A DNA stretch of 64,000 bases, from the NCBI GenBank assembly GCA_947629375.1, contig CANRDN010000005.1, positions 6,968 through 70,967 on the forward strand. Reading direction: 5' to 3'. Below, one piece after another: positions 11,711 to 46,905 of this stretch. The notes below the pieces were generated by a model that worked only from the letters and a program-made list of their open reading frames with translations, was not told the DNA's origin and searched no databases. The position numbers were made by a program, and so were the translations under genes. Source of the DNA: an uncultured Bacilli bacterium. GTDB lineage: Bacteria > Bacillota_I > Bacilli_A > RF39 > UBA660. The stretch's first letter is position 1. Each line of letters opens with the position of its first letter.

Positions 11711-12517
11711 ATGAAAACTTTAAAAGGTACTTTTGCTAATATGAAAAGATATAGTTTCCTTATGAAACAATTAATTTTAAGAGATTTTAAAGTTAAATAT
11801 AAAAGAAGTGTTTTAGGTGTCGTTTGGAGCCTTCTATACCCCGTTTTAATGATGGCCGTTATGTATATGGTTTTCTCTCAAATGTTTAAGTTTAGATTAG
11901 AGGGAGTTAACTATCCAGTTTATTTGATGACTGGTCTTGTAATGTTTAACTATTTTAGTGAAGCAAGTAATCTTGCGATGACATCGGTTGTCAATAATTT
12001 TGCTTTAATAAATAAAGTTTACATTCCTAAATATATTTTCCCGATTTCTAAAGTGTTATTTGTGGGAATTAACTTTTTACTTACTTTAATACCGCTTCTA
12101 GTTATAATTGTCTTTACTGGAAGTGGGGAAACAAGATGTATTATTAATATTTGGTATTTGGTACTTCCTTATATATTCTTATGTATGCTTATGTTTACAG
12201 CAGGACTTGGCTTACTTCTTTCGACTATTTCGGTCTTTTTAAGAGATATGTTCTATATCTATGGAATAATACTTACTATTTGGAACTATGTAACACCAGT
12301 ATTCTATGATATCTCAATTATCCCAAGCAATTTACAACCTTTATTTAAACTTAATCCGTTATATATATTTATAAATAGTGCTAGAAAAATAATTCTTTTC
12401 CAAACTTGCCCTAATGGAATGGAATTACTTGTTATGTTCTTAATAGGTTTTGGAACTTTACTTATCGGTTCTATAATATTTAAGAAAAACCAAGATAAAT
12501 TTATTTATTATGCGTAG
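11711..12517 (+). CDS. tagG: ABC-2 type polysaccharide/teichoic acid exporter permease (TagG/Wzm family)
   Basis: 268 aa with 6 TM segments and an ABC-2 signature. Adjacent to its ATPase partner. RBS AGGAGG. Confidence 0.8.
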   Translation: MKTLKGTFANMKRYSFLMKQLILRDFKVKYKRSVLGVVWSLLYPVLMMAVMYMVFSQMFKFRLEGVNYPVYLMTGLVMFNYFSEASNLAMTSVVNNFALINKVYIPKYIFPISKVLFVGINFLLTLIPLLVIIVFTGSGETRCIINIWYLVLPYIFLCMLMFTAGLGLLLSTISVFLRDMFYIYGIILTIWNYVTPVFYDISIIPSNLQPLFKLNPLYIFINSARKIILFQTCPNGMELLVMFLIGFGTLLIGSIIFKKNQDKFIYYA

Positions 12518-12525
12518 GTGATAAG

Positions 12526-13308
12526 ATGATAACAGTTAAAAATGTTTCAATGAAATTTGATTTAGGTATCGAAAAAGGTAATTCTTTCAAAAATAAATTT
12601 ATTGCTATTTTTGATAGAAAAAGAAGACATAAAAAAGAATATTTCTGGGCTTTAAAAGATGTTTCTTTCGAAGTTAAAAAGGGTGAAGTAATCGGGTTAA
12701 TCGGAAGTAATGGCGCAGGAAAAAGTACAATGCTTAAAGTAGTAAGTGGTGTAATGAAACCTACTAAAGGTAAAGTGACGATAGAAGGAAGTATTGCTCC
12801 GATGATTGAGCTTGGTGCGGGATTTGATAGTGAGTTAACTGCAAGAGAAAACATATATTTAAATGGAGCAGTACTTGGTTATTCAGAAAAGTTTTTAAAT
12901 TCTAAATTCGATGAAATAGTAGAGTTCTCCGAATTAAAAGATTTCCTTGATGTACCAATTAAGAATTTTTCTTCAGGTATGATTGCTAAACTTGCTTTTT
13001 CTATTTCGACAGTAGTAAATCCTGATATTTTAATTGTCGATGAAATTTTATCTGTTGGAGATATTAAATTCCAAGAGAAGAGTTTAAATAAAATGATGGA
13101 AATGATTAAAGGTGGAACGACAGTCCTTTATGTTTCTCACTCTCTTGAAAGTATAAGAGAGTTATGTGATAGAGTTATTTGGCTAGATCACGGAGAAGTT
13201 GTAAAAATGGGTGATACGAAAAAGATATGTGACGAGTATTACTTCAAACAGATGGGTGTTCCATACGAAGAAAAGAAAAGTAAGAAAAAGAAGAAAAAAA
13301 ATGATTAA
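12526..13308 (+). CDS. tagH: ABC transporter ATP-binding protein (TagH/Wzt-like, short form)
   Basis: Walker A GSNGAGKST, ABC signature SSGM, Walker B ILIVDE. Confidence 0.85.
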   Translation: MITVKNVSMKFDLGIEKGNSFKNKFIAIFDRKRRHKKEYFWALKDVSFEVKKGEVIGLIGSNGAGKSTMLKVVSGVMKPTKGKVTIEGSIAPMIELGAGFDSELTARENIYLNGAVLGYSEKFLNSKFDEIVEFSELKDFLDVPIKNFSSGMIAKLAFSISTVVNPDILIVDEILSVGDIKFQEKSLNKMMEMIKGGTTVLYVSHSLESIRELCDRVIWLDHGEVVKMGDTKKICDEYYFKQMGVPYEEKKSKKKKKKND

Positions 13309-17363: not shown

Positions 17364-18914
17364 ATGTCTAGGACAAAGAATAGTGTTAAAAACTTACTTA
17401 CAGCTATTATTGGACAAGGTATAGGATTCATTGTAAGTTTTATTGCTAGAATATTTTTCATAAGAACTCTTGGAAGAGAATATTTAGGACTTAATGGTCT
17501 TTTTACCAATATACTTACCATTCTTTCTCTTGCTGAACTAGGAGTAGGGGAAGCGATAACTTATAGTCTTTACAAGCCACTTGCCGAAAATGATTCTAAA
17601 AAATGTACGATGTTAATGCAGGTATATAAAAAAGTTTATAATGTAATTGGACTTGCTATATTGCTAATTGGAATAGCAGTAACTCCTTTTTTACCATTTA
17701 TAATAAAAGATATGCCTAATATTCCTAACATCAGTTTTATCTATATTTTATTTGTAATTAATACTTCTGTTTCTTACTTTTTCTCATATAAAAGAAACTT
17801 AATAATAGCGGATCAAAAAAGATATATTGCAACATTTATAAGATATCTTGCTCATATAATATTTACTTTCTTAGAAATAGTTTATTTAGTTCTATTTAGA
17901 GATTACATCGGTTACTTATTAATAATGATTGCGTCTACTTTAGCAGATAATGTTATGGTATCTATAAAAGCTGAAAAGATGTACCCATACTTAAAAAGTA
18001 AAGAGAAAATTCCTTTAGATAAAGAATCTAAAGAGAGTATTATTAAAAATACTAAAGCAATGATGATGCATAAAGTAGGGGGAGTTGTTGTAAGTTCTAC
18101 TGATAATATTTTACTTTCAAAATTTGTTTCTCTTGATGCTGTAGGACTTTATTCCAATTATTTCTTTGTTACCAATGCTTTAAATAGTGTAGCAGTCCAT
18201 ATCTTTAACTCTGTTACAGCAAGTGTCGGTAATATGGTAGTACTAGAAAATAAAGAAAAGCAATACTCGATATTTAGAGATATTTTCTTCTTAGACTTTT
18301 GGCTTTTCTGTTTTCTATCTGTATCTCTTTTATGTCTTTTTAATCCATTTATCGAATTGTGGGTCGGAAAAGAATATTTATTTGGTTTCGATATAGTTTG
18401 TATCATCGTTATTAACTTCTATCTAACAGGTATGAGAAGAGCTGTTCTAACCTTTAGGGAAGCGAGTGGACTATTCTATAAAGACAGATGGAAATCTGTT
18501 GCGGAAGCAGTTCTTAATTTAGGATCTTCTATTGTACTTGCAATTTACTTAGGAACTTTTGGAGTATTTTTAGGAACATTTATAAGTGCAGTAATGACTT
18601 GTATCTGGATTGAACCTTTAGTCCTTTATAAATATGGTTTTGAAAAGAAACTAAGAAATTACTTCTTTATCTATTTTAAATATTTATTTATAACTCTTAT
18701 ATGTGCTGTTGTTACTTATTACTTGTGTAGCTTTATTAACTTTGGAAGATTCGTTTCCTTCATTTTAAAAGGAATACTTTGTGTACTAATTCCAAATACT
18801 GTTGTGTTCTTATTATTTAGAAAATCAAATGAGTTCAATTACTTTAAAAGAATGATTAAAAATATCTTGAAGAAAATAAGAAAAAAGCAGGTGGTTAAAA
18901 ATGCAGAAGCGTAA
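17364..18914 (+). CDS. MOP-superfamily polysaccharide flippase (Wzx-like)
   Basis: 516 aa with about 14 TM helices and the typical oligosaccharide flippase N-terminus. Confidence 0.75.
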   Translation: MSRTKNSVKNLLTAIIGQGIGFIVSFIARIFFIRTLGREYLGLNGLFTNILTILSLAELGVGEAITYSLYKPLAENDSKKCTMLMQVYKKVYNVIGLAILLIGIAVTPFLPFIIKDMPNIPNISFIYILFVINTSVSYFFSYKRNLIIADQKRYIATFIRYLAHIIFTFLEIVYLVLFRDYIGYLLIMIASTLADNVMVSIKAEKMYPYLKSKEKIPLDKESKESIIKNTKAMMMHKVGGVVVSSTDNILLSKFVSLDAVGLYSNYFFVTNALNSVAVHIFNSVTASVGNMVVLENKEKQYSIFRDIFFLDFWLFCFLSVSLLCLFNPFIELWVGKEYLFGFDIVCIIVINFYLTGMRRAVLTFREASGLFYKDRWKSVAEAVLNLGSSIVLAIYLGTFGVFLGTFISAVMTCIWIEPLVLYKYGFEKKLRNYFFIYFKYLFITLICAVVTYYLCSFINFGRFVSFILKGILCVLIPNTVVFLLFRKSNEFNYFKRMIKNILKKIRKKQVVKNAEA

Positions 18915-23909: not shown

Positions 23910-24626
23910 ATGAACAAAAAGTATGGAAAATATCTTTTAGCAGTATCTTTTTTATTGATAATTTTTGGAATTGTAATGATCTATTCTTCATCTAGTATTT
24001 GGGCAGAGTATAAGTTTAATGACTCTTTTAAATATGTTAAACATCAAGTTTTATTTTTTGCAGTTGGAATAGTACTAATCTATCTTTTAAGTAAAGTAAA
24101 TTACGAATTTTATTATAAGAATGCTACCAAGATTTTTATTATTTGTTTAGTTTTGTTAGTACTTGTTCTAATACCAGGAATTGGTAGTGTTAGAAACGGA
24201 AGTAGAAGCTGGTTTGGAATAGGTGCTTTTGGAATTCAGCCAAGTGAATTTGCAAAACTGGCCTTAATAATTTTAACAAGTAAATATTTATCTATTTCTA
24301 ATAAGTTTATAAAGAATATTACCAAAGGTGTGTTTCCCATTTTATTACTAATGTTTTTAGTTTTTGGACTTATAATGTTACAGCCTGATTTTGGTACAGG
24401 AATGATTATTGTAGTTGGTATCTTAGCTCTTCTTTTTATAGCAGGAGTTAATATTAAATTTTTCTTAGGGCTTGGGGCTATTGGTGTTTTAGGAATCATC
24501 GGTCTAATTATAGTAGCACCATATCGAATGGATAGAATAACATCATTTATTGACCCTTGGAGTGATCCTTTAGGAACAGGCTTTCAAATAATTCAATCTT
24601 TGTACGCAATAGGTCCAGGTGAGTAA
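23910..24626 (+). CDS. ftsW: SEDS-family peptidoglycan glycosyltransferase (FtsW/SpoVE/RodA), N-terminal 238-aa segment of a gene split by an inserted element
   Basis: SEDS motifs QPSEFAKL, LQPDFGT and RITSFIDPWSDPLGTGFQIIQSLYAIGPG. The ORF ends abruptly (GE-stop) at the element junction. Confidence 0.8.
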   Translation: MNKKYGKYLLAVSFLLIIFGIVMIYSSSSIWAEYKFNDSFKYVKHQVLFFAVGIVLIYLLSKVNYEFYYKNATKIFIICLVLLVLVLIPGIGSVRNGSRSWFGIGAFGIQPSEFAKLALIILTSKYLSISNKFIKNITKGVFPILLLMFLVFGLIMLQPDFGTGMIIVVGILALLFIAGVNIKFFLGLGAIGVLGIIGLIIVAPYRMDRITSFIDPWSDPLGTGFQIIQSLYAIGPGE

Positions 24627-26703: not shown

Positions 26704-26808
26704 ATGGAAAGAAATATTAAATTATATTTTGATGGTAATACTTCTTTAGAGAGTTTAATAGAAAATTTTGTTTATGAATCATACAAGGAAAAAGAAAAAA
26801 TTGAATAA
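26704..26808 (+). CDS. small ORF (34 aa) overlapping the recombinase 5' end; possible directionality or accessory factor
   Basis: ATG at 26704 after AGGAGGATTTTTT. Different frame from the recombinase. Highly uncertain. Confidence 0.2.
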   Translation: MERNIKLYFDGNTSLESLIENFVYESYKEKEKIE

Positions 26809-28267
26809 ATTTATAGCAGGTATTTATATTAGATTATCTAAAGAAGATGAAATAAAAAATGATAATTCCTCTTATAGTGAAAGTGTAGAAAATCAAAAAG
26901 AATTATTATTAAATTATGTTAAAGAAAATAATTTTGTTTTGTATGACACATACATAGATGATGGCTATAGTGGTACTAACTTTAATCGACCTAGTTTTAA
27001 TAGATTAATTAGTGATATTGAAAATAATAAAGTTAATGTAGTTATTGTAAAAGATTTATCAAGACTTGGAAGAGATTATATCCTTACAGGTTACTATTTA
27101 GAAATGTGGTTTCCTAAGAAAAACATTAGATTTATTTCTATACTGGATAACATAGATACTTTTTCAAACAATAACATTAACTTTGACTTTGCACCTTTTA
27201 AAACTTTAATAAATGATATGTATTCAAGAGATAATTCTAAAAAAATAAAAACAGCACTAAGAACAAAACAACTTCAAGGAAAGTGGGTTGGGGGATGTAC
27301 TCCTTTTGGTTATATTCAAGATGAAAAAGATAAAAATCATTTAGTAATTAACAATGAAGAAGCCGATATTGTCAAAAAAATATACTCTCTTTTTTTGAGA
27401 GGATATTCAATTAATAAAATATCGGATTATTTATATAAAGAAAAAATCCTTCCACCAAATATTCAAAGAGATATAAATAGAAAAAATAACAATTTTCATT
27501 GGAGTAGTACAACGATAAAAACAATTTTAACAAATAGACTTTATACAGGTGATATGATTCAAAATAGAAGATCAAGAATTAATTACAAAGTTAGAACCTT
27601 AAAGAAAAATAATAAAGAAGATTGGATAGTTGTTTTAAATACTCATAAAGCAATTATTGATAAAGATGATTTTGATGATGTTCAAAGAATAATAAGTACT
27701 AATAGCAATATTAAATCAAATAAAAAAAATGATTATTTACTTTCAGGGTTTCTATATTGTGGTGAATGTAAAAATAGAATAGTAATTCAAAAGAGTGGAG
27801 AATACTTTTATACGATGTGTAATAATTATAGAAAAAATTCTAAATTAAAAGTTTGTACACCACATTCAAATAATTATTTTAAACTTGAAAAAACAATAAT
27901 AGACAATTTAAAAAAAATAATTTCAACTCTGGATATAGAAAAAGTTGTAGATAGATTTGATGAAAAAGTTAATCAAAAAAATAGTTTGGAAGATATCAAT
28001 TCTTTAAAGTCTAATCTCGATAGTATTTATCTTGACTATATCAATAAAAAAATTAAAGAAGATATGTATTTAAGAATTAGTGAAAGATTAACAAAAAAAA
28101 TAGAACAATTAGAAAATAAAAAAGTTGAAAAATATAATACTAGAGAATATGTAGAAAGTTATTTAAATAATATTTCAAAAGATGTACTTATAAGACTTAT
28201 CAAAAAAATAGAAATACATAAAGATAAATCAATTGATATTTATTTTAATTTTATCGCTCAAAAATGA
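26774..28267 (+). CDS. large serine recombinase (resolvase domain, recombinase domain, zinc ribbon, coiled coil)
   Basis: Catalytic Ser context AGIYIRLSKEDE. Zinc ribbon CGECKNR...CNNYRKNSKLKVCTPH. About 495 aa. The start is ambiguous (ATG 26774 or TTG 26801). The stop overlaps the ATG of the SEDS C-terminal segment. Confidence 0.9.
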   Translation: MNHTRKKKKLNKFIAGIYIRLSKEDEIKNDNSSYSESVENQKELLLNYVKENNFVLYDTYIDDGYSGTNFNRPSFNRLISDIENNKVNVVIVKDLSRLGRDYILTGYYLEMWFPKKNIRFISILDNIDTFSNNNINFDFAPFKTLINDMYSRDNSKKIKTALRTKQLQGKWVGGCTPFGYIQDEKDKNHLVINNEEADIVKKIYSLFLRGYSINKISDYLYKEKILPPNIQRDINRKNNNFHWSSTTIKTILTNRLYTGDMIQNRRSRINYKVRTLKKNNKEDWIVVLNTHKAIIDKDDFDDVQRIISTNSNIKSNKKNDYLLSGFLYCGECKNRIVIQKSGEYFYTMCNNYRKNSKLKVCTPHSNNYFKLEKTIIDNLKKIISTLDIEKVVDRFDEKVNQKNSLEDINSLKSNLDSIYLDYINKKIKEDMYLRISERLTKKIEQLENKKVEKYNTREYVESYLNNISKDVLIRLIKKIEIHKDKSIDIYFNFIAQK

Positions 28268-28650
28268 ACTCAGGTGGGCTTTTAGGAATGGGATTTTTAA
28301 AATCTAGACAGAAACAGTTTTATTTACCAGAACCACAGACAGACTTTATTTTTTCAATCATTAGTGAAGAGTTTGGTGTAATGGGGGTAATAATTGTTGT
28401 TGCATTATTTTTATTACTTGTTTACTTTGGTTTTAAGATTGCCATTAATGCCCAAGATGGCTTTGCAAAATATTTATCATTTGGATTAGTATTTCAAATA
28501 CTTATTCAAGCTATAATGAATCTTTGTGTAGTTATTGGACTTATTCCTGTTACTGGAGTAACTTTACCTTTCCTTAGTTATGGTGGTTCTTCCTTACTAG
28601 TCAGTATGGCTAGTATTGGCATTATTTTAAATATTTCAAAAAATAGTTAA
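28264..28650 (+). CDS. ftsW: SEDS-family protein, C-terminal 128-aa segment
   Basis: Contains SGGLLGMGFLKSRQKQFYLPEPQTDFIFSI and LPFLSYGGSSLL, the conserved SEDS C-terminal motifs. Confidence 0.8.
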   Translation: MNSGGLLGMGFLKSRQKQFYLPEPQTDFIFSIISEEFGVMGVIIVVALFLLLVYFGFKIAINAQDGFAKYLSFGLVFQILIQAIMNLCVVIGLIPVTGVTLPFLSYGGSSLLVSMASIGIILNISKNS

Positions 28651-35272: not shown

Positions 35273-35366
35273 AAAAGTAAAACATTGTGTAAAGGTACTT
35301 ACATCTTTTAAAGCATAAATAATAGCAAAATAATAAAATATGTTATACTCTAAATGGAGGTGTCTT

Positions 35367-36977
35367 ATGCTAACATATGATGAAATAATCAGTTTTTGTT
35401 CAAATTATAGAATTGAAAATGGAACAGTTATTGATAACAAAACAAATGAAAAAGTAACTGATGAAGACACTATTCTAAAAGTAAAATCTTCAGTCTTAAT
35501 TTTTAAAGAAGCCAGAAGTAGTTATCAAGAAGATATGGTTCAATTTGATCAAACAAGAAAATCAAAAGAAGATTATGTCAAAAAGACTATGGAAAAGTTT
35601 AGTGTAAACGATGAAGAAAACACCTTTGGAATAAACAAATTAATAAGAGCAATTATTTCGTCAAACGGACATTACGAAGAGTATATTTCTGGAAATGATT
35701 TACAAAATGGTAAATTTTCAATTCTAGTTGAACCAAAAAAAGATTATGGCCTTGCTTATTTGAGATTAAAATTTAGAGAAAAAGGACTTGATTTAGAATC
35801 CTTTAATATAAGTCAAGATTTAAGTGAGTTAAAACATAATGGTGTATCAAAAGTTATTATAGATTTTAAAGTAAAACAAAAAGAAAAAACTAACATAGAA
35901 GATAAAGAATCAATTTATAGACATCCTAAAGCTGATATTTTAAATGAACTTGAAAAGCAAAAAAACGATGCAAAACAGATGGGTGATGAGGTTGGTTACA
36001 ATTATGCTTTAAGAAATATAGAACGAATAGTAAGAGAAGAACCTGCCTATGTATCTGCTGAAGAATTTAATAAAATGAGTATTGAAAGTAAAAAAGCTTT
36101 TATTAAAGTTAAAATTAATGAAGCTAGAGTTCTTAGAAATAAAGCTGTCTTTGATTATTGGACTCAAAACTTAAGTAAATTAGAGCAAAGGGAATTAGAT
36201 AAAAGTGAACCAGTTCATAGTGAGCCTAATAAAGTTGGTGAGAAAGAAAATCCACCAATACCAGTTGTAGAAGTTGAGAAAAGAAAATATCAAATACCGG
36301 TTGTAGAAACTAATAGAGAAAAAGAACCTGTTCAATCAAATCCTGTAAGTCAAGTAACACCCAATGAAGAAAGAACTAAAAAAGAAAAACACAACTATAA
36401 ATATTACTTTGATGAAATGATGAAAGTGATACAAAGATATAATCCTGATAATGCAACAGCAGAAGAAAAAAAACAGGCAATTGGGGAAATTTACTATTAT
36501 ATGGGATATATGACATCAAGTTTAACAAATATGCACGAAATATTTGATTTGAATTTCCTAGTAATTAATGAACTATCAGATACTCCTTTTAAAATAAAAT
36601 TAAGAGATAGTATTTTAAAAGATATAATATGGCAAAAGAATAAAATAACTACAAATACTTACGAGAAAGAAGAAACAAAAGAATTGGATTCTAAGTTTTC
36701 TAGAGCTATGCAGGAATTACGATCTAAATTAAAAAAGATTCAACAATCTTATAAAAATATGTTACAAGATGGTTCAATCGATGAAGATGAATTAAATGTA
36801 CTACTTGGACAAATGAGTAGAATTGTAGAAGATAGTTATTCTTTGAAAAGATTTATTACTACCGATGAAGCCAAAGAAGATTTAAGAATAGTTATAAATG
36901 AATTAGAAGAACAAAAAGAAAAGATGTTAAGAGTACAAAGAGGAGTAGAAGATTTAAAGGGTGGATTAAGATATTAA
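35367..36977 (+). CDS. hypothetical cytoplasmic helical protein (536 aa); its C-terminal region is paralogous to 42577..43491
   Basis: ATG at 35367 after AATGGAGGTG. Shares YYF(D/E)xM..(I/V)...NP.NA...E.K.A and D(D/E)(D/E)L..L.GQ... with the 304-aa protein. Confidence 0.5.
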   Translation: MLTYDEIISFCSNYRIENGTVIDNKTNEKVTDEDTILKVKSSVLIFKEARSSYQEDMVQFDQTRKSKEDYVKKTMEKFSVNDEENTFGINKLIRAIISSNGHYEEYISGNDLQNGKFSILVEPKKDYGLAYLRLKFREKGLDLESFNISQDLSELKHNGVSKVIIDFKVKQKEKTNIEDKESIYRHPKADILNELEKQKNDAKQMGDEVGYNYALRNIERIVREEPAYVSAEEFNKMSIESKKAFIKVKINEARVLRNKAVFDYWTQNLSKLEQRELDKSEPVHSEPNKVGEKENPPIPVVEVEKRKYQIPVVETNREKEPVQSNPVSQVTPNEERTKKEKHNYKYYFDEMMKVIQRYNPDNATAEEKKQAIGEIYYYMGYMTSSLTNMHEIFDLNFLVINELSDTPFKIKLRDSILKDIIWQKNKITTNTYEKEETKELDSKFSRAMQELRSKLKKIQQSYKNMLQDGSIDEDELNVLLGQMSRIVEDSYSLKRFITTDEAKEDLRIVINELEEQKEKMLRVQRGVEDLKGGLRY

Positions 36978-36995
36978 AATCGATATATAAAAAAG

Positions 36996-37022
36996 AATGT
37001 AGACATTTGAGTCTACATTTTT
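36996..37022 (+). terminator. rho-independent terminator
   Basis: AATGTAGAC-ATTTGA-GTCTACATT hairpin followed by T tract. Confidence 0.55.
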
Positions 37023-37045: not shown

Positions 37046-37363
37046 TTACTTTTTGTATAATGCAACTGCCATCGTATATTCCTTTTCGTGAGAAATGGAA
37101 ACATCAATATTTTTAATATTACATTTAGGACTACCATCTTTGTTTGTCAAAATTTCGATATCTAAAAAATTTAATTCTTTCGTGTTATCCAAAACTTTCA
37201 TAATAGCTTCTTTAGCAGCAAATCTTCCATAAAGGTATGAGTTTCCTCTTTCTTTAAATTCTTCTTGCTCTTTTTTAGTTAGAACATAGTCAATAAAACT
37301 TTGATTTTTATTTTGAAGTCGTTTATTTTCTACAATATCGCATCCAATTTTCACGGTAATCAT
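37046..37363 (-). CDS. acpS: holo-[acyl-carrier-protein] synthase (4'-phosphopantetheinyl transferase)
   Basis: MITVKIGCDIVE ... FAAKEAIMK ... ISHEKEYTMAVALY are AcpS signatures. The longer N-terminal extension in the ORF track is ignored. Confidence 0.8.
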   Translation of the reverse strand: MITVKIGCDIVENKRLQNKNQSFIDYVLTKKEQEEFKERGNSYLYGRFAAKEAIMKVLDNTKELNFLDIEILTNKDGSPKCNIKNIDVSISHEKEYTMAVALYKK

Positions 37364-37484
37364 CCTTTCCGTTTGTTTTGTTTCATTATAGCGTATATTT
37401 AAAACTATGTAAATCTTGACGCACAAAAAGGTATATTTTATAATAAATATTGGTAATAAGGCTGATATTAGAATAGGTGATTTG

Positions 37485-37913
37485 ATGAATGAATATAGAT
37501 TTTCTGATATAAAAATAGGGATGGAAGAATCTTTTGAAGTAGAATTAACTGAAGAAAAATGTGAGCACTTTTTAAAGCTTGCGGGAGACATTAATCCACT
37601 TCATAATGATGTCAATTTTGCTAAAGATATGGGGTATCCAAATAAAGTACTTTGGGGTGGACTAACTTCTTCTTTTCTATCAACTTTAGCAGGTGTTTAT
37701 TTGCCTGGAAAATACAGTTTGATTCTAAGTGAAGAAATCCTTTTTAAAAAACCCGTTTTTCTTGCGGATAGTCCATTAACTATTCAAGGAAAAGTAATTG
37801 ATATAAATGTAGATTTTCACCAATTTACAATTGCTTTTTCTATCTATAATAACAAAAAAGAAAAGGTGGTTCGTGGAACTATGAAAGTAGGTGTATTGGA
37901 TGATGAAAGATAA
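37485..37913 (+). CDS. MaoC-like (R)-hydratase/dehydratase, hotdog fold
   Basis: ATG at 37485 after AGGTGA. Motif GDINPLHND and hotdog-fold length (about 142 aa). Confidence 0.7.
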   Translation: MNEYRFSDIKIGMEESFEVELTEEKCEHFLKLAGDINPLHNDVNFAKDMGYPNKVLWGGLTSSFLSTLAGVYLPGKYSLILSEEILFKKPVFLADSPLTIQGKVIDINVDFHQFTIAFSIYNNKKEKVVRGTMKVGVLDDER

Positions 37914-38637
37914 AATATTATTAGTGACAGGTGGTTCTTCTGATGTTGGAATGGCCTTAATTGAGAAAGTGCAGGATGACTTTGATTACATTATTGCCCA
38001 TCATATAGGAGATAATGAAAAGCTTCTTTCTTTAAAAGAAAAATTAGGTGACAAATTAATTCTTGTAAAAGGTGATTTTTTAAGTGAAGAAGATACTTAT
38101 AGATTTGTTGAAGAAATTAAATCTTTAGGTAAGATTCCGACTCATATTGTTCATTTGCCTGCAGGTCGTTTTGAAAATATTAAATTTACAAAAATAGGAT
38201 GGGAAAAGTTTGAAAAAGATTATCATATAGCTTTTCGTTCTCTAGTAATTATATTAAGTGCTTTCCTTCCTATGATGGAGAAAAATAAATTTGGAAGAAT
38301 TGTTGTTATGCTTACATCTTGTACTTTGAATATTCCACCAAAATATTTAGCTAGTTATGTATCAAGTAAGTATGCTCTATTAGGGCTTGTAAAAGCACTT
38401 GCAAATGAATATGCTGAAAAAGGTATACGTATAAACGGTGTATCTCCTTCTATGATGGATACTAAATTTTTAGATTCAATTCCTGATTTAATTGTTGAGC
38501 AAAATGCTTTAAAAAGTCCAACGGGAAAGAACTTGTCAGTAGAAGAGGTAGTCCCTACATTTCAATTTTTACTTTCCGATGATGCTCAAGGGATTACTGG
38601 TCAAAATTTGGCCATTACAAATGGAAATATAATGTAA
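37900..38637 (+). CDS. short-chain dehydrogenase/reductase (3-oxoacyl-ACP reductase-like)
   Basis: TGGSSDVG Rossmann motif. Catalytic YxxxK (YVSSKYALLG). Overlaps the maoC stop. Confidence 0.75.
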   Translation: MMKDKILLVTGGSSDVGMALIEKVQDDFDYIIAHHIGDNEKLLSLKEKLGDKLILVKGDFLSEEDTYRFVEEIKSLGKIPTHIVHLPAGRFENIKFTKIGWEKFEKDYHIAFRSLVIILSAFLPMMEKNKFGRIVVMLTSCTLNIPPKYLASYVSSKYALLGLVKALANEYAEKGIRINGVSPSMMDTKFLDSIPDLIVEQNALKSPTGKNLSVEEVVPTFQFLLSDDAQGITGQNLAITNGNIM

Positions 38638-38675
38638 AAATAAAAGTTTTATAATAATTTTAGTTTATTATATAA

Positions 38676-38712
38676 AGCAATCTATATTTAGATGGTTAAG
38701 ATTGCTTTTTGT
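38676..38712 (+). terminator. possible terminator
   Basis: AGCAATCT ... AGATTGCT stem with a long loop, followed by TTTTTG. Confidence 0.3.
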
Positions 38713-38730
38713 TGTGAGGAGTGAAGTAAT

Positions 38731-40269
38731 ATGAATTTAATTTCATTATCATTTGTTCTTTTGTGTATTATTACTTTGATAATTTACTTTGTTATACCAA
38801 AGAAAATACAATGGATTGTTCTACTTATATCGAGTCTTGTTTTTCTATTCTACGATAATTTTAGTTTAGGTACATTTTTACAAGCCGGAGTAGTACTTTT
38901 AACTACATATACAATGGCTCGATTAATTGAAAAAAATCGTGATTCGAAGAAAGCAAAATATTTCTTAATTACTGGAATTTTAATTGTTTTAGGAGTTTTA
39001 CTCTACATTAAATATTCAAATATGTTTTTGAGTATGTTTAATAGTTTATTTGGAATTGTCGGATTAAACTTCAAATTTAAAATGATAAATACAGTTTCTT
39101 TAGTTGGTATTAGCTATTATTCTTTAATAATGATTAGTTATATGACAGATGTTTATAGAGGAACTTGTAAAGCTCAAAAAAATATTCTTAAGTGTGCTTT
39201 ATTTGTTTATTATTTCCCAATTTTAAATTCAGGACCATTTATTAGATATGGTGAACCGGGGGGGGTAGAGAACAATTTATATAATGGCCACAAGTTTAGT
39301 TATGAGCATATGTGTAGTGGACTAATTCGTATTGCGTGGGGTGTTTTTAAAGTTCTCGTAATATCTATACGACTTGGTTATTTTGTCGACACTGTCTTTT
39401 CGGATTTAAATGCATACCCTGGTATATTTACAATTATTGCTGTTTGCTTCTTCCCATTACAACTTTATACAAACTTCTCTGGATCAATTGATATTATTAT
39501 GGGTGTATCAGAAATAATGGGAATTGAATTACCTGAAAACTTCACGTCACCATTTTTCTCACGTACTATTACGGAGTTTTGGCGTAACTGGCATATTACT
39601 CTTGGATCTTGGTTAAAAGATTATGTATTTTATCCTTTACAATTATCTAGTGGTATTCAAAAACTTACTAAATTCTGCAAAAATCATTTTGGTAAAAAAG
39701 CCGGCAAAAAGATTCCAATGTTTTTATCAATGTTTATTATGTGGATTTTGATTGGAGCCTGGCACGGTGGTGCAGTTAAATTTATTATTGGTTCCGGTGT
39801 TCTTCAGTTCGTGTATATATTACTCGAAGATTTATTGACGCCTATCTCAGAAAAGTTAAATAAAAAACTTGGTATTAATACAGATACTTTTGGATATAGA
39901 TTATATCAAATGGTTCGAACATTCTTATTATTTTCTTTAGCAATGGTTTTCTTCCGTGCTGATAGTGTATCAAACGCAATTGAAATATTTAAAAATATGT
40001 TTGTATGGAATCCTTGGGTATTACTTGATAATGCTTCATTGTATAATGCAGGACTTGATTTATTAGATTTTCGTATTTTAATAATTTCTTTAGTTGTACT
40101 ATTTATTGTCGACTATTTAAAAAGAAAAATGAATGTACGCGAAAAATTATTTAGTCAAAATATTGTTTTTCGTTGGTTACTAATTTATGCTTTGTTATTT
40201 TCAATTATCATTTTTGGTTGCTACGGTCCTGGTTATGATGCTGCAGACTTTATATATCGTGGCTTTTAG
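38731..40269 (+). CDS. MBOAT-family membrane-bound O-acyltransferase (DltB/AlgI/PatA-like)
   Basis: 512 aa polytopic protein with a conserved His in a WRNWHITLGSWLKDY context, typical of MBOAT. Confidence 0.85.
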   Translation: MNLISLSFVLLCIITLIIYFVIPKKIQWIVLLISSLVFLFYDNFSLGTFLQAGVVLLTTYTMARLIEKNRDSKKAKYFLITGILIVLGVLLYIKYSNMFLSMFNSLFGIVGLNFKFKMINTVSLVGISYYSLIMISYMTDVYRGTCKAQKNILKCALFVYYFPILNSGPFIRYGEPGGVENNLYNGHKFSYEHMCSGLIRIAWGVFKVLVISIRLGYFVDTVFSDLNAYPGIFTIIAVCFFPLQLYTNFSGSIDIIMGVSEIMGIELPENFTSPFFSRTITEFWRNWHITLGSWLKDYVFYPLQLSSGIQKLTKFCKNHFGKKAGKKIPMFLSMFIMWILIGAWHGGAVKFIIGSGVLQFVYILLEDLLTPISEKLNKKLGINTDTFGYRLYQMVRTFLLFSLAMVFFRADSVSNAIEIFKNMFVWNPWVLLDNASLYNAGLDLLDFRILIISLVVLFIVDYLKRKMNVREKLFSQNIVFRWLLIYALLFSIIIFGCYGPGYDAADFIYRGF

Positions 40270-40280
40270 GGGGCGAAAAA

Positions 40281-41330
40281 ATGAAAAAGATTGTAAAAAG
40301 TATTGTTTTTATTATCATTTTTTGCCTAATATGGAACTATGTTTTTAAAATACTTTGGATAAATGAAAGACCAATATCTCAATTTTACAAAGAACCAAAT
40401 GATTCCTTAGATGTTGTCTATATTGGTGCTAGTAATGCTTATAAATCTTTTAATACCACACTAGCTTTTAATGAATATGGATTTGCAACAGGATTTCTTG
40501 CAGATGGTTCTCAACCGTTTGAAATGACAAAATATCTTATAAAAGAATCAGAGAAGTATCAAAGCCCAGCTGTATATGTAATCGATATATATAGATTATG
40601 TGTCGGTTCAGCAATAGAAGGAAACATCCGTAATAGTACCGATTCTATGAAATTTTCTTTAAACAGGATAGACGCTATAAACGCAATGTTAAAATATTCT
40701 GATATTGTAAAAGATGACCCTAATACCAAGTCAAAAGATAATGCTTTATATTACTATTTTAGTTTTATGCTATACCATAACAAATGGAAAAATATATCTT
40801 ATGAGAACTTTTCTGAAAGCAAAGAGTTCTACAAAGGATATATGTTAACTAAAAATGAAATAGAAATAAATGAACAAGAAAACTTTATTTGGCAGGACGA
40901 TATCCAAGAAATTCCAAAGGAAAGGTTAGAAATTTTAAATGATCTTTTGGACTATATCGATTCAAGTAAAGTTAATGTCTTATTTGTAATACCTAATCAC
41001 GTTTATACACCAGAAGCTAATTCACAGTTTAATTATGTTACTAAAGTTATTGAAGATAGAGGCTATGATGTTATTAATTTTAATACTTTAGATGACTTTA
41101 GAGGAGATTACGCTACTGAATTTTATGATATTAGTCACTTTAATGTTTATGGAGCAACTAAATATACTTTGTATTTTGGTAAATATTTAAAAGAACACTA
41201 TAATTTACCAGATCATCGAGAAGATGAGAAGTATCACTCTTGGTACGAAGTATACGATAAACTTAAAGAAAGATATAAAGAGCTTACTGGTAATAATTTT
41301 GATGATATGCTTTCAAAATACAAAAAATAA
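40281..41330 (+). CDS. DltD/SGNH-like membrane-anchored acyltransferase partner (paralogue 1)
   Basis: N-terminal TM helix. Block I-like VVYIGASN and block V D-x-x-H (DISHFN). Lies directly downstream of the MBOAT gene. Confidence 0.55.
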   Translation: MKKIVKSIVFIIIFCLIWNYVFKILWINERPISQFYKEPNDSLDVVYIGASNAYKSFNTTLAFNEYGFATGFLADGSQPFEMTKYLIKESEKYQSPAVYVIDIYRLCVGSAIEGNIRNSTDSMKFSLNRIDAINAMLKYSDIVKDDPNTKSKDNALYYYFSFMLYHNKWKNISYENFSESKEFYKGYMLTKNEIEINEQENFIWQDDIQEIPKERLEILNDLLDYIDSSKVNVLFVIPNHVYTPEANSQFNYVTKVIEDRGYDVINFNTLDDFRGDYATEFYDISHFNVYGATKYTLYFGKYLKEHYNLPDHREDEKYHSWYEVYDKLKERYKELTGNNFDDMLSKYKK

Positions 41331-41354
41331 AAAAAATTATAATATCGAGGAGGT

Positions 41355-42428
41355 GTGAAAATGAAAAAAATTGCAAAAAGTCTTGTTTTTATCTTTATCT
41401 TTTGTCTATTGTGGAACTACACTTTTAAAATACTTTGGATGAGTGATAAACCAATAACTCAATTTTATGAAGAACCAAATGACTCTTTAGATGTTATCTA
41501 TATTGGTTCTAGCAACGTCTTTTCATCTTTTAATACCACCCTTGCATTTAATGAATATGGATTTGCAACGGGAATGCTTGCTGGGGCTTCTCAGCCATTC
41601 GAACTTGTAAAATACTTAATTAAAGAATCTGAAAAGTACCAAAAACCTGCTGTATATGTAATCGATTTATATAAAGCGTGTGCTAATACAGCAACAGAAG
41701 GAAATATCCGTAATACTACAGATGCTATGAAGTTTTCTTTAAATAGATTCGATGCCATAAATGCTATGTTAAAATATTCCGATATAGTAAAGGATGATTC
41801 TAATACCAAGTCAAAAGATAATGCTTTATATTACTACTTTAGCTTTATGCTATATCACAATAGATGGAAAAACTTATCTTACGATGATTTTTCTGAAAGT
41901 AGAACATTTTACAAGGGATATATGTTATCAAGTGAAGCCATAGAAGTTAATGAGCAAGATAACTTTGTTTGGCAAGATGACGTTCAAGAACTTCCCAAGG
42001 ATAATTTAGAGATTTTAAATAATCTTTTAGACTATATTGATTCAAGTAAAGTTAATGTCTTATTTATTGTCCCTAATAAAGTTTATATGCCTTCAGTTAA
42101 TTCACAAATGAATTATGCTATTAAAGTTATTGAAGATAGAGGTTATGAAGTTATTAATTTCAATACTTTAGATGACTTTAGAGGGGATTATGCTACAGAA
42201 TTTATGGATTATAATCATTATAATGTTTATGGAGCAACTAAATATACTTTGTATTTTGGAAAATATTTAAAAGAACATTACAATTTACCGGATCATCGAG
42301 AAGATGAGAGATATAGCTCTTGGTACGAAGTATACGAAAGAGTTAAAGAAAAATATAAAGAACTTACTGGTAATAATTTCGATGATATGCTTTCAAAATA
42401 CAAAAGTAAAAAAAGTTATTTCTCTTAA
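41355..42428 (+). CDS. DltD/SGNH-like membrane-anchored acyltransferase partner (paralogue 2)
   Basis: About 70% identical to 40281..41330 by eye. Same motifs VIYIGSSN and DYNHYN. Confidence 0.55.
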   Translation: MKMKKIAKSLVFIFIFCLLWNYTFKILWMSDKPITQFYEEPNDSLDVIYIGSSNVFSSFNTTLAFNEYGFATGMLAGASQPFELVKYLIKESEKYQKPAVYVIDLYKACANTATEGNIRNTTDAMKFSLNRFDAINAMLKYSDIVKDDSNTKSKDNALYYYFSFMLYHNRWKNLSYDDFSESRTFYKGYMLSSEAIEVNEQDNFVWQDDVQELPKDNLEILNNLLDYIDSSKVNVLFIVPNKVYMPSVNSQMNYAIKVIEDRGYEVINFNTLDDFRGDYATEFMDYNHYNVYGATKYTLYFGKYLKEHYNLPDHREDERYSSWYEVYERVKEKYKELTGNNFDDMLSKYKSKKSYFS

Positions 42429-42576
42429 TTTAGAAATAGCTTAACACTCAAAAATATTTATAACTTAAATACTTTTTAATAATATTAGTAAAATTTTATG
42501 TAAACTTTAGAATATCTTTAATTGCACCAATCAAAAAAGTTAAAAAATTATGTTACACTTTTAGTGGAGGTATCCT

Positions 42577-43491
42577 ATGGCGACAAGTAATGTAGATAAA
42601 AATTTACGATATATACAATTTTACTTTTTTAATCTTTTAGATGTAGCAAATAAATACAATAAAGATTTCACAGATGAAGAAAAAGACCAATTAGGTAACG
42701 AAATTCTTGAGAACGTAGAAAAAATATTTAAACATTTAACAAACAAAACCGAAATAACATATTTAGTAGCTTTACTTAATATGTACTTTACTGATACATC
42801 TTTTAAGCAAGGCTTGCAAACATTAATTCAAGAAAAAATCGCTCCAATGATTGATAAACTAGCTGAAAATGCCATTCAAAAAGAGAATCATAGTTATGCA
42901 TATTATTTTGAGAAAATGGTGGAAATAGCTCACGGAAATAATCCCAACAATGCAGAAAGTCAAGAAGATAAAGCAATTATGAATGCTAGTGTAACAGTAG
43001 AATTAAATTATGCCTTGAGATGTATGAGTGCAAAAGTAAAAACTCCTCAAGATAAATATGAATTATTAAATTTAATTGATCAAAGACTATCTGATACACC
43101 TTACGATAAAAAAATAAAAAACATCCTAAGTTATAAGATTAATGAATTGCCACTACAAAAAAATGTCGCTGTAGAAGATAAAAATGAAAAATTACATTCT
43201 CAATATTTATCATTTTTTGAAGATTTAAAAACAAGATTTAGAAAAGTTAGAGAATCTTGTGATGGTATATTCAAACACAGCTTTAGAGATGATGACCTTG
43301 AAATATTGATTGGTCAAATCAAAAAAATAAGAAACGACTTTTATAATATGGACTTTAGAAAGTTTGGACTTACAGAAACTGAAAAACGCGAATTAACGAA
43401 TTTCATTGATGCTGTAGAGGATTTGTATAAAAAAATGTTAAATATGCAGGATGATTTAGAAGAATTAAATCATCATCATTATGGGCGTTAA
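42577..43491 (+). CDS. hypothetical cytoplasmic helical protein (304 aa), paralogous to the C-terminal region of 35367..36977
   Basis: RBS GGAGG. Shared motifs listed under the 35367..36977 feature. Confidence 0.5.
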   Translation: MATSNVDKNLRYIQFYFFNLLDVANKYNKDFTDEEKDQLGNEILENVEKIFKHLTNKTEITYLVALLNMYFTDTSFKQGLQTLIQEKIAPMIDKLAENAIQKENHSYAYYFEKMVEIAHGNNPNNAESQEDKAIMNASVTVELNYALRCMSAKVKTPQDKYELLNLIDQRLSDTPYDKKIKNILSYKINELPLQKNVAVEDKNEKLHSQYLSFFEDLKTRFRKVRESCDGIFKHSFRDDDLEILIGQIKKIRNDFYNMDFRKFGLTETEKRELTNFIDAVEDLYKKMLNMQDDLEELNHHHYGR

Positions 43492-43527
43492 AATAGAAAT
43501 ACCTTAACACATAAATAGAATGTATGA

Positions 43528-44778
<1,251 letters not shown>

Positions 44779-44809
44779 ATTCCAATAAAAATTAAATAGT
44801 GATAAGATA

Positions 44810-44836
44810 AATGTAGACAGGATTGTCTACATTTAT
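44810..44836 (+). terminator. rho-independent terminator (weak T tract)
   Basis: AATGTAGACA-GGAT-TGTCTACATT hairpin followed by TATCAAA. Confidence 0.45.
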
Positions 44837-44884
44837 CAAATTATTTAGATGAATGATGATGGCATATAACGAAAAGAGGTACGA

Positions 44885-46663
44885 ATGAGAGAATTAGAAT
44901 ATCCTTTTGATTCAGAATTGTTAATTAAAAACAAAAGGAAAATAAAAAAAGAACTATTACAAAATGATAATTTTATTGAAAAGAAAATAGCAATATTAGG
45001 TGGTTCAACAACTAGTGAAATAAAAAATATGTTGGAATTATTTTTATTGAATTATGGAATTAAACCAACTTTTTATGAATCTGAATATAATAAGTTTTAT
45101 GAAGATGCTGTATTTGGTAACGATGAATTAAACGAATTTAATCCAGATATAATTTATATTCATACGACTAATAGAAATATTACAAATTATCCAACTATGC
45201 TTGATGATAAAAAGACAGTCGATGAAATGTTACAAGCAGAATATGACAAGTTTGAAAAAGTTTGGGATTCACTATTAAATAAATTTAATGCAACTATTAT
45301 TCAAAATAATTTTGAATATCCATATTATCGTTTACTAGGTAATAAGGATGCTAGTGATATTCACGGTAAAATAAACTTTATTACCAAGTTGAATCAAAAG
45401 TTTTATGATTATGCAAATATTACTAAAAATTTCTTTATAAATGACATCAATTATGTTTCATCTTGTTATGGTTTAGATAAATGGTCTAACCAGTTTTATT
45501 GGCATATGTATAAATATGCGATGGAAGTACCTGCAATTCCATATTTATCATTCAATATAGCAAATATTATCAAGTCTATTTATGGTAAAAATAAAAAAGC
45601 TTTTGTCCTTGATTTAGACAATACTCTATGGGGTGGAATAGTTGGAGATGATGGAGTAGATAACTTAAGTATCGGTCCAGAAGTCCCAACAGGACAAGTT
45701 TATTTGGAATTTCAACAATATTTAAAAGAACATAAAAATTTAGGTATTATACTAAATGTAAACTCTAAAAACGATTATGAAAATGCAATAGCAGGATTAA
45801 ATCATCCAGGAGGAGCTTTAAAGCCAGAAGACTTTATAATCATAAAAGCCAATTGGAACCCTAAAAATATGAATATAAAAGATATATCAGAAGAGTTAAA
45901 CTTGGGTGCAGATAGCTTTGTCTTTGTAGATGATAATCCTGTTGAGAGAAATATCGTTAAAACTTATATTGAAGGAATAGCAACGCCTGAAGTAGATGTA
46001 CCTGAAAACTATATCAAAATAATAGATAGAAATGCTTATTTTGAAATGACCAATTTTAGTGAGGAAGACATTAAGAAGACAGACCTTTATAAGGATAATG
46101 CTAAAAGAAGTCAAATGATGGCTACTTTTGATAATTATGATGATTATTTAAAATCACTTAAAATGGTGGCAGAAATATCTTCATTTAAGCCAATTTATCT
46201 AGAAAGAATATCACAGCTTAGCAACAAGAGTAATCAGTTTAATTTAACTACTAAGAGATACTCACTTGCTGATATCGAAGAAGTTTATAATAGTGATGAA
46301 TATATTAAAATATATGGAAAGTTAGAAGATATCTTTGGGGATAATGGAGTTATATCAGTAGTAATTGGACATATCAAAAAGAAAAAAGAATTACATATCG
46401 ACTTATGGATAATGAGTTGTAGAGTATTAAAAAGAGATATGGAATTTGCTATGATGGATGAACTTGTTAGAAGATCTCTTGAAAAAGGTATCAAAACAAT
46501 TTATGGTTACTATTATCCAACTCAAAAGAATAAAATGGTTAAAGAATTTTATGAGACTCAAGGATTTGAATTATTAGAGTGTGATAGTGATGGAAACAAG
46601 ACTTATAAATTAGAACTTGATAATTATGAAAATAAAAATAATGTAATAGAGGTGAAAGAGTAA
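44885..46663 (+). CDS. FkbH-like HAD-IIIC family protein with a C-terminal acyltransferase-like domain
   Basis: HAD motif I in VLDLDNTLWGGIVGDDG. 592 aa. The stop overlaps the start of the downstream carrier protein (ATGA). Confidence 0.65.
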   Translation: MRELEYPFDSELLIKNKRKIKKELLQNDNFIEKKIAILGGSTTSEIKNMLELFLLNYGIKPTFYESEYNKFYEDAVFGNDELNEFNPDIIYIHTTNRNITNYPTMLDDKKTVDEMLQAEYDKFEKVWDSLLNKFNATIIQNNFEYPYYRLLGNKDASDIHGKINFITKLNQKFYDYANITKNFFINDINYVSSCYGLDKWSNQFYWHMYKYAMEVPAIPYLSFNIANIIKSIYGKNKKAFVLDLDNTLWGGIVGDDGVDNLSIGPEVPTGQVYLEFQQYLKEHKNLGIILNVNSKNDYENAIAGLNHPGGALKPEDFIIIKANWNPKNMNIKDISEELNLGADSFVFVDDNPVERNIVKTYIEGIATPEVDVPENYIKIIDRNAYFEMTNFSEEDIKKTDLYKDNAKRSQMMATFDNYDDYLKSLKMVAEISSFKPIYLERISQLSNKSNQFNLTTKRYSLADIEEVYNSDEYIKIYGKLEDIFGDNGVISVVIGHIKKKKELHIDLWIMSCRVLKRDMEFAMMDELVRRSLEKGIKTIYGYYYPTQKNKMVKEFYETQGFELLECDSDGNKTYKLELDNYENKNNVIEVKE

Positions 46664-46905
46664 TGAAAAAAGAAGAAGTATACGAAAGACTAAATGGAGT
46701 TTTTAGAGATGTATTTGATGACGAATCAATCGTAGTAAAACCAGAAACAACTTCAAGTGATATCGAAGATTGGGATAGCTTAGAGCATATTAACCTAGTT
46801 GTTGCAGTAGAACAAGAATTCGGAATAAAATTTAATATGAATGAAGTTACTTCAATGAAAAATGTTGGAGAAATGGTCGATATTATTTTAAGTAGAGTTA
46901 AGTAG
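46663..46905 (+). CDS. acyl carrier protein (stand-alone)
   Basis: 80 aa. The phosphopantetheine attachment context DIEDWDSLEHINLVVAVEQEFG matches the carrier-protein DSL motif. Confidence 0.75.
   Translation: MKKEEVYERLNGVFRDVFDDESIVVKPETTSSDIEDWDSLEHINLVVAVEQEFGIKFNMNEVTSMKNVGEMVDIILSRVK

Follow-up and report, generated by a model that had tools for sequence, protein, structure and literature searches.

D-alanylation has so far been treated as the only carrier-protein-dependent pathway among those that pair an acyltransferase of the MBOAT family with an SGNH-fold partner, and the others are stated to lack a carrier protein (PMC12148441, 2025). The acyl route from DltC to DltB in the Dlt pathway has been described, and there the FXYXXF motif resides on a separate microprotein, DltX (PMC12148441). 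MBOATs of the PatA type auto-acylate the tyrosine of a C-terminal FXYXXF motif (FIYANF in PatA of N. gonorrhoeae) and then hand the acyl group to the SGNH partner (PMC12148441). Enzymes of the FkbH type serve as glyceryl-ACP synthases in polyketide pathways; FkbH-type loading modules are listed as yielding D-lactate bound to the acyl carrier protein (ACP) from 1,3-bisphosphoglycerate (PMC7901079). Degenerate primers for polyketide FkbH genes encode the peptide DLDNTLW (PMC3679948), and an FkbH-domain gene, cj1302, is part of the flagellin glycosylation locus of C. jejuni (PMC7099621). The locus described here brings the two kinds of enzyme together. It lies in a 64,000-nucleotide stretch of DNA from an uncultured Bacilli bacterium (assembly GCA_947629375.1, contig CANRDN010000005.1, positions 6,968 to 70,967), referred to below as the window, and encodes an AcpS-type 4'-phosphopantetheinyl transferase (PPTase) on the minus strand, a MaoC-type dehydratase, an SDR reductase, an MBOAT, two SGNH-fold paralogues, an FkbH-like protein and a stand-alone ACP. 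All of these genes are present where a first-pass annotation of the sequence had placed them. The genes probably constitute a single pathway for the O-acylation of a polymer in the extracytoplasmic envelope, the acyl group being a C3 hydroxy-acid supplied by a dedicated carrier protein, although a minority of the probability stays with the rival explanations weighed below.

The domain identities and catalytic residues of the gene products are established, and so is the linkage of the genes, which was assessed across genomes. Related loci were collected by scanning contigs, one genome per species, with an SGNH-like alignment of 24 closer sequences, a 35-sequence SGNH profile being too divergent for the purpose. 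The scan returned 74 loci, 73 of them relevant, and their gene content was assigned by tblastn with the window proteins. Genes for FkbH, ACP, MBOAT and SGNH proteins are all present in 56 of the 73 loci. The usual arrangement is a contiguous block on one strand in the order FkbH-ACP-(tailoring genes)-MBOAT-SGNH, with one to five tandem SGNH copies per locus. Chance is far from sufficient to explain this clustering, given that dozens of species share the gene set. The first-pass annotation had proposed a Dlt-like pathway that decorates the envelope with a glyceryl- or hydroxyacyl-type group and had staked it on co-localisation in related genomes; that co-localisation is found, and the synteny supports the pathway, with the acyl group and the acceptor still assigned conditionally.

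Nearly all of the 17 incomplete loci are either truncated by the end of a contig or extra paralogues from genomes with the full block elsewhere. About a dozen end at a contig edge beside the block, L059 and L020 hold lone extra SGNH paralogues while the full block lies on another contig of the same genome (L061 and L043, respectively), and one genome has its block split over two contigs (L010 and L040). L045 is the only locus with 8 kb of upstream sequence and yet no FkbH gene. The order of genes varies: L028 and L031 have FkbH-ACP behind MBOAT-SGNH, L038 and L047 begin with the tailoring genes, and in L075 and L077 interleaving is complete. Linkage is kept in distant Clostridia in which SGNH identity is just 27-33%. 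The loci derive mostly from rabbit-gut metagenome-assembled genomes (MAGs) labelled Bacilli or Clostridia, and also from Oscillospiraceae, Lachnospiraceae, Acutalibacteraceae, Candidatus Limiplasma and others. No ketosynthase, glycosyltransferase, other acyltransferase or other consumer of acyl-ACP is found in the block. Its neighbours are housekeeping genes in most loci, the window and L079 included, and a glycosyltransferase/ABC-exporter locus in L004. The window carries a recently split version of the block, in which fkbH-acp now stands behind eno and a terminator-like hairpin, because L034, whose FkbH is 96% identical to that of the window, has the contiguous form. Measured against the window proteins, the median identities are 81% (FkbH), 84% (ACP), 62% (MBOAT) and 47% (SGNH); the cytoplasmic proteins of the module are thus far more conserved than the exposed ones.

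The MBOAT combines features of two known types. It matches PF03062 with 40.1 bits, and its closest solved structure is DltB (6BUG, E 2e-13), with His345 of the sequence AWHGG aligned to the catalytic histidine of the DltB WHG motif. The score against the DltB equivalog TIGR04091 is 116.4 bits and does not reach the cut-off of 375. W344, H345, F507 and Y509 are invariant among 66 homologues. Of 74 homologues, 67 have F-x-Y-x-x-F at their very C-terminus, and the window protein ends in FIYRGF. The enzyme thus carries the fused shuttle motif of the PatA/AlgI type and is not of the DltB type, and DltX would not be needed because the motif is part of the MBOAT itself. The first-pass annotation had read these genes as MBOAT plus DltD machinery; the MBOAT-SGNH pair holds, and the implied DltB type does not.

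Each SGNH paralogue has an N-terminal transmembrane helix, a G49-x-S51 block and a D283-x-x-H286 block. The two are 79% identical in alignment, and paralogue 2 is a recent tandem duplicate. Neither matches Pfam (DltD, DHHW, ALGX and GDSL included) or any NCBIfam model, even at E<=10. The structure model, with a predicted local distance difference test score (pLDDT) of 92, has an SGNH fold preceded by the transmembrane helix, and Foldseek ranks DltD (3BMA, 6PFX, 7DXM) first, with PatB also among the matches. D44, G49, S51, G67 and H286 are invariant in the alignment of SGNH sequences and D283 is conserved in most of them, while the asparagine of SGNH block III was not identified in the paralogues. 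Predicted fold and invariant residues only therefore make the paralogues SGNH/DltD-like, and by sequence they are not members of the DltD family. Of the earlier description of two tandem DltD/SGNH-like proteins, the anchor, the GxS and DxxH blocks and the fold stand; membership of DltD, DHHW or another modelled family does not. The paralogues are predicted to be functional analogues of DltD and PatB, acting as membrane-anchored transferases. The presence of several fast-evolving copies suggests different acceptor sites or polymers. The family is large: run on a 50%-identity library, its profile finds 12,199 cluster representatives at E<=0.001, and still 4,521 when the limit is E<=1e-30. Many of its members are longer and carry C-terminal extensions, and the family as a whole is without a Pfam or NCBIfam model.

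The FkbH-like protein matches TIGR01686 with 257.6 bits (cut-off 146.65) over model positions 3-321 of 323, and also matches the HAD-IIIC model TIGR01681 and FkbH_N (PF21211). Among 52 orthologues, D243-L-D245-N-T-L-W-G-G, S294-K-N, D349-D350 and Cys512 in M-S-C-R-V-L are invariant, and HAD motif I (DLDNTLW) is identical to that of polyketide FkbH. The sole solved relative is BF1531 of B. fragilis (PDB 3SLR, E 4e-50), which aligns to residues 30-393, the N-terminal and HAD parts. From the structure prediction only domain-level fold matches were used; the C-terminal domain matches GNAT acyltransferases at a target-normalised TM-score of 0.6-0.72 within an overall model of low confidence. A full-length match above cut-off, DLDNTLW and a GNAT-like domain with an invariant cysteine set the protein apart from an ordinary HAD phosphatase, the identity that the first-pass annotation had named as fatal to its proposal. 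The clade differs from polyketide FkbH by its additional N-terminal FkbH_N domain. The stop codon of fkbH and the start of acp overlap as TAATG, and acp is translationally coupled to fkbH, in agreement with the earlier description of a HAD-IIIC protein coupled to a carrier with a DSL site.

The carrier protein matches PP-binding with 24.5 bits (cut-off 20.8). It scores under the cut-off of every AcpP equivalog model and is reached by generic ACP models only; no DltC model matches it at E<=0.01, and DltC is not among its PDB matches. W37-D38-S39 is invariant in 56 orthologues (W37-D38-S39-L40 in the window), so that the conserved serine on which the earlier proposal depended is kept. The acpS product matches PF01648 with 51.7 bits and TIGR00556 with 61.1 bits. 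Its true extent, given by the gene call plus ATG and ribosome-binding site, is that listed in Table 1; a 181-aa open reading frame (ORF) that extends to 37591 arose only from the way ORFs were listed. At least 14 related loci encode a homologue of AcpS divergently and directly upstream of fkbH, and an Sfp-type PPTase takes this place in L068.

The genes between loader and exporter vary across the family. The window MaoC matches PF01575 with 35.5 bits, and the D, N and H of its G-D-x-N-P-L-H hydratase motif are invariant in 35 orthologues; as had been noted earlier, its gene overlaps the SDR gene, by 14 nt. The SDR matches adh_short_C2 with 116.6 bits, and its glycine-rich motif and Y156-x-x-x-K160 (numbered from the GTG at 37891) are invariant; its best family match is generic and well under every cut-off. 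MaoC occurs in 32 of the 56 complete modules, and 25 of the 26 complete modules that have an SDR pair it with MaoC. Accessory content divides into MaoC+SDR (22 blocks), VOC/Glyoxalase_4 (18), MaoC alone (6), none (5) and mixtures (5). MaoC+SDR is one of several interchangeable tailoring cassettes between loader and exporter. The best family match of the VOC protein is methylmalonyl-CoA epimerase, at 34 bits and under cut-off, which suggests a thioester alpha-epimerase. In the Clostridia blocks counted as 'MaoC alone', genes for an aldo-keto reductase and a split transketolase are also present, interspersed among those of the core. In L068 (10989-13617), and likewise in L072, L074, L075, L076 and L077, the aldo-keto reductase and two-subunit transketolase genes stand among fkbH, acp, maoC and the MBOAT gene. 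The transketolase versions imply that the acyl group assembled on the carrier is more elaborate there, and possibly C2-extended.

A Dlt-like relay is proposed because every catalytic element it needs is present and conserved and because the block holds no other consumer of acyl-ACP. From the enzymes present we infer the following order of steps, the acyl group and the acceptor. AcpS would turn apo-ACP into holo-ACP. The FkbH-like enzyme would accept a glycolytic acyl phosphate, by homology 1,3-bisphosphoglycerate, strip the 3-phosphate with its HAD domain and move the glyceryl group onto the ACP thiol, probably via Cys512. MaoC would take the 3-OH off glyceryl-S-ACP, giving enol-pyruvoyl/pyruvoyl-S-ACP, and the SDR would reduce the 2-oxo group of pyruvoyl-S-ACP to leave lactyl-S-ACP. 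The MBOAT, through His345, would carry the acyl group across the membrane to Tyr509 of its own FIYRGF, from which Ser51 of an SGNH protein would receive it for transfer to hydroxyls of a cell-wall or membrane-linked polymer. Blocks that lack tailoring genes would install glyceryl, and the VOC enzyme of other blocks would invert C2. The lactyl product is proposed because the tailoring pair consists of a dehydratase and a reductase, MaoC+SDR here and MaoC+aldo-keto reductase in Clostridia. The model case for this glyceryl-to-lactyl logic is the DH-KR-FkbH-ACP loading module of BryA in bryostatin biosynthesis.

Compared with D-alanylation, the proposed relay passes through the same kinds of station: an acyl group held as a thioester on a carrier, an MBOAT, the tyrosine of FXYXXF, the serine of a membrane-anchored SGNH protein and finally a polymer. 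Among solved structures none is closer to the MBOAT than DltB, and the SGNH proteins have DltD among their nearest folds. The loader here is an FkbH/HAD-GNAT protein that would use an acyl phosphate, whereas the Dlt pathway uses an ATP-dependent adenylating ligase; the acyl group would be a neutral C3 hydroxy-acid instead of cationic D-alanine; the shuttle motif forms the last six residues of the MBOAT instead of a separate DltX; and the carrier is not of the DltC type and is accompanied by on-carrier tailoring enzymes. No DltA-like AMP-binding gene is annotated across window positions ~815-56660, which bears out the first-pass annotation on this point. The module would thus work in a Dlt-like manner, yet by its sequences it lies outside Dlt on each count: DltA, a DltC-type carrier, the DltB cut-off, DltX and the DltD family.

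The PatA/PatB and AlgI/AlgJ/AlgX systems share with the module a catalytic-histidine MBOAT with a fused C-terminal FXYXXF motif and a separate, single-anchor extracytoplasmic SGNH transferase. Those systems are described as using acetyl-CoA and no carrier protein (PMC12148441), whereas here a carrier, a loader, a PPTase and tailoring genes are linked to the pair. By its motifs the module fits the structural definition of PatAB/AlgIJ (MBOAT histidine, fused FXYXXF and adjacent SGNH protein with Ser-His-Asp), yet it would contradict the stated no-carrier rule. To the FkbH/OzmB glyceryl-ACP synthases of polyketide pathways (methoxymalonyl-ACP, tetronates and lactate starters) it is linked by an FkbH domain above cut-off, DLDNTLW, a conserved C-terminal domain, an adjacent stand-alone ACP and, as proposed, modification of glyceryl-ACP on the carrier after loading. 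It differs from them in having no polyketide or non-ribosomal assembly line, in the proposed delivery of the product to a membrane acyltransferase and in the extra FkbH_N domain, which is shared with BF1531. The FkbH-ACP pairs of surface-glycan loci (BF1531/3SLR and cj1302 of C. jejuni) have a similar make-up, a three-domain FkbH-like protein followed by an 80-aa carrier, sometimes with VOC/Glyoxalase_4, in capsule or envelope loci. They have no adjacent MBOAT-SGNH pair, and their transfer step is presumably cytoplasmic or via Acyl_transf_3.

Two contexts from Bacteroidota illustrate the last group. The FkbH-ACP pair of BF1531 heads a capsule locus after UpxZ (L089, 647-5017), and FkbH-Glyoxalase_4-ACP stands beside GtrA, UbiA and two Acyl_transf_3 genes in L088 (8001-16258). 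Because of these contexts, the FkbH-ACP(-VOC) cassette is taken to serve envelope loci in a second phylum. Two further blocks, L080 (7350-12990) and L087 (599-4904), combine a DltC-like carrier, an amino-acid adenylation enzyme (TIGR01733, above cut-off), an MBOAT and a distant SGNH protein of the same family, with a GNAT in L080. Their MBOATs end in FIYEQF or FVYADF, a fused shuttle with no DltX, and the carriers of L080 match DltC. These blocks are another undescribed carrier-dependent MBOAT-SGNH variant, and because they use an adenylation enzyme, carrier-dependent fused-shuttle MBOATs exist with at least two types of loader. The SGNH/MBOAT clade is repeatedly paired with carrier proteins, L080 and L087 being distant cases.

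Several observations weigh against a single pathway of the proposed kind. The studied MBOATs with a fused FXYXXF motif use acyl-CoA and not carrier proteins (PMC12148441). In the window, fkbH-acp is 2.5 kb from the remaining module genes, with a terminator-like hairpin between, and the supporting loci are non-independent, coming largely from one rabbit-gut MAG study and related lineages, with ~8 loci from other orders. The full-length FkbH model is poor (pLDDT 67) and was built from close homologues only, and Cys512 is presumed, on the pattern of OzmB, to be the site of an acyl-S-enzyme intermediate. The FkbH substrate is assigned by homology to polyketide enzymes, and with the extra N-terminal domain another acyl phosphate could be the one used; it is, like the lactyl product, the acceptor and acyl-CoA-free donation, a prediction from sequence and homology. 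One rival explanation is that two independent systems are merely co-located: MBOAT and SGNH would form an O-acetyltransferase like PatA/PatB or AlgI/AlgJ, fed by acetyl-CoA, and FkbH-ACP, with MaoC/SDR, would make a glyceryl- or lactyl-thioester for another cytoplasmic use, such as the assembly of sugar or lipid substituents that this same polymer carries. A fused FXYXXF motif is typical of acyl-CoA users, the two halves form separate transcription units in the window, and in Bacteroidota FkbH-ACP occurs without an MBOAT, at the head of the capsule locus or beside Acyl_transf_3, which means that the pair can work with other partners. We regard this explanation as unlikely, since the block offers no other acyltransferase, ketosynthase or glycosyltransferase to use the acyl-ACP, core genes are mixed with tailoring genes in several arrangements, the linkage is kept across orders, and distant relatives of the SGNH/MBOAT clade also stand beside a carrier protein and a loader. 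That the ACP, its loader and a PPTase share one block with the MBOAT favours a carrier-bound acyl donor for this enzyme.

A single pathway might also carry a different acyl group, if FkbH loaded a unit other than glycerate, or if the final group were glyceryl or pyruvoyl instead of lactyl and MaoC and SDR acted otherwise. The extra N-terminal domain that separates this FkbH clade from the polyketide enzymes leaves room for such a variant, as do the varied tailoring sets (none, VOC, MaoC only, or MaoC, aldo-keto reductase and transketolase) and the generic, below-cut-off family match of the SDR. TIGR01686 is nevertheless matched at full length and above cut-off, HAD motif I is the same as in polyketide FkbH, and a dehydratase with a reductase is the set expected for glyceryl-to-lactyl conversion (PMC7901079); another acyl group is on this evidence distinctly unlikely. 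The acceptor could in turn be a membrane lipid, a glycolipid or a secreted small molecule and not a wall polymer, as polymer-synthesis genes are not consistently adjacent and housekeeping genes flank the block in the window and L079. This we consider very improbable, given that those bacterial MBOAT-SGNH pairs that have been characterised modify envelope polymers (PMC12148441), that a glycosyltransferase/ABC-exporter locus surrounds one related block (L004) and that the host has a cell wall, with PBP, MraY and FtsW encoded in the window.

If O-acylation from a dedicated carrier is the function of these genes, the module would be a second carrier-protein-dependent type of MBOAT-SGNH system. More tentatively, and at a little short of an even chance, it may exemplify a modular envelope 'assembly line' that is widespread in gut Firmicutes and takes another form in Bacteroidota, with an FkbH loader, interchangeable on-carrier cassettes, a fused-shuttle MBOAT and one to five fast-diverging SGNH proteins that furnish wall polymers with hydroxyacyl esters, whether glyceryl, lactyl or more elaborate ones. 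Such a system, if true, would amount to a chemically programmable MBOAT-SGNH class and to previously unknown cell-surface ester modifications. The combination of a natural-product-style loader with on-carrier tailoring predicts new glyceryl/lactyl envelope esters in abundant uncultured gut bacteria, and these could affect lysozyme susceptibility, phage susceptibility and host recognition. A candidate function is offered for the large class of FkbH-like 'HAD-IIIC phosphatases' encoded away from polyketide clusters, the solved BF1531 among them, for the very large unmodelled SGNH family and for MBOAT paralogues that annotation routinely labels AlgI or DltB. In the full-text literature, FkbH together with MBOAT, O-acyltransferase or polysaccharide returned only unrelated natural-product papers and the mention of cj1302, and an earlier bioinformatic mention is possible.

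Table 1. Features of the acylation locus and the genes within it (window positions).
Feature	Position	Strand	Remarks
acpS, AcpS-type 4'-phosphopantetheinyl transferase (102 aa)	37046..37354	-	PF01648, TIGR00556; divergent from maoC operon
Divergent promoter-like sites, acpS/maoC intergenic	37385..37444	.	11/12 sigma-70-like matches at 37416-37444 (+) and 37413-37385 (-); consensus match only
MaoC-type hot-dog dehydratase (142 aa)	37485..37913	+	PF01575
FabG-like SDR reductase (245 aa)	37900..38637	+	adh_short_C2
MBOAT membrane acyltransferase (512 aa)	38731..40269	+	PF03062; His345; FIYRGF, residues 507-512, nt 40249-40266
SGNH-fold membrane-anchored transferase (predicted), paralogue 1 (349 aa)	40281..41330	+	predicted fold, invariant residues
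SGNH-fold transferase (predicted), paralogue 2 (355 aa)	41361..42428	+	79% identity to paralogue 1, same invariant residues
304-aa gene	42577-43491		no family match
Enolase	43552-44778		TIGR01060, 641 bits
FkbH-like three-domain loader (putative; 592 aa)	44885..46663	+	FkbH_N, HAD-IIIC (D243-x-D245), GNAT-like domain with Cys512
Stand-alone carrier protein ACP (80 aa)	46663..46905	+	PP-binding; Ser39 in DSL, codon 46777-46779

Enolase and the 304-aa gene separate the SGNH paralogues from fkbH in the window (Table 1), and rpsO and then pnp lie downstream of acp. The promoter scan of the region is overall uninformative, with 66 sites against 66 expected from shuffling. Enolase was considered as a functional member that supplies or drains glycolytic intermediates and was rejected: it is unlinked to the module in other genomes, and its gene is equipped with a separate promoter-like site and with a terminator-like hairpin. 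By tblastn across the retrieved loci it is near the module in just one other locus, at a distance of 9 kb, so that the coincidence suspected by the first-pass annotation is the better description. The 304-aa gene was likewise rejected as a module member, having no family match, being a paralogue of the C-terminal part of a 545-aa gene and being absent from all other loci. The 545-aa protein (35340-36977) is encoded directly upstream of acpS, and its C-terminal part is related to the 304-aa protein by a 27% tblastn match. Both proteins are rich in Lys and Glu and have no Pfam match, and neither adjoins the module in any other genome retrieved.

Two hairpins, at 36996-37019 and 44810-44833, share identical 9-bp arms (AATGTAGAC ... 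GTCTACATT), against a chance expectation of none. The window holds no further copy, and the two flank the segment from acpS to eno, the segment that parts fkbH-acp from its usual place beside acpS. The pair may be a common terminator element or the footprint of a rearrangement.

The GC content of the window is 29%, which prompted consideration of a wall-less, Mollicutes-like host. This was rejected, as the window encodes a PASTA-domain penicillin-binding protein (PBP), MraY and FtsW/SpoVE, and a relative has a CotE gene. Because PBP, MraY and FtsW are encoded in the window and CotE in the relative, the host is, judging from its gene content, a walled, spore-forming Firmicute. Upstream in the window lie a TagGH-like ABC-2 exporter pair (11711-13308) and a Polysacc_synt flippase (17364-18914), which may mark one or more polymers available as acceptors. 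A gene of the FtsW/RodA/SpoVE family is apparently interrupted, with 238 aa of the N-terminal part encoded at 23910-24626 and 128 aa of the C-terminal part at ~28264-28650. The ~3.6-kb insert between them encodes a helix-turn-helix protein, an ORF with no assigned function and a large serine recombinase (26768-28267; Resolvase+Recombinase+Zn_ribbon_recom), and it is reminiscent of the intervening elements of the 'skin' type by which sporulation genes are interrupted.

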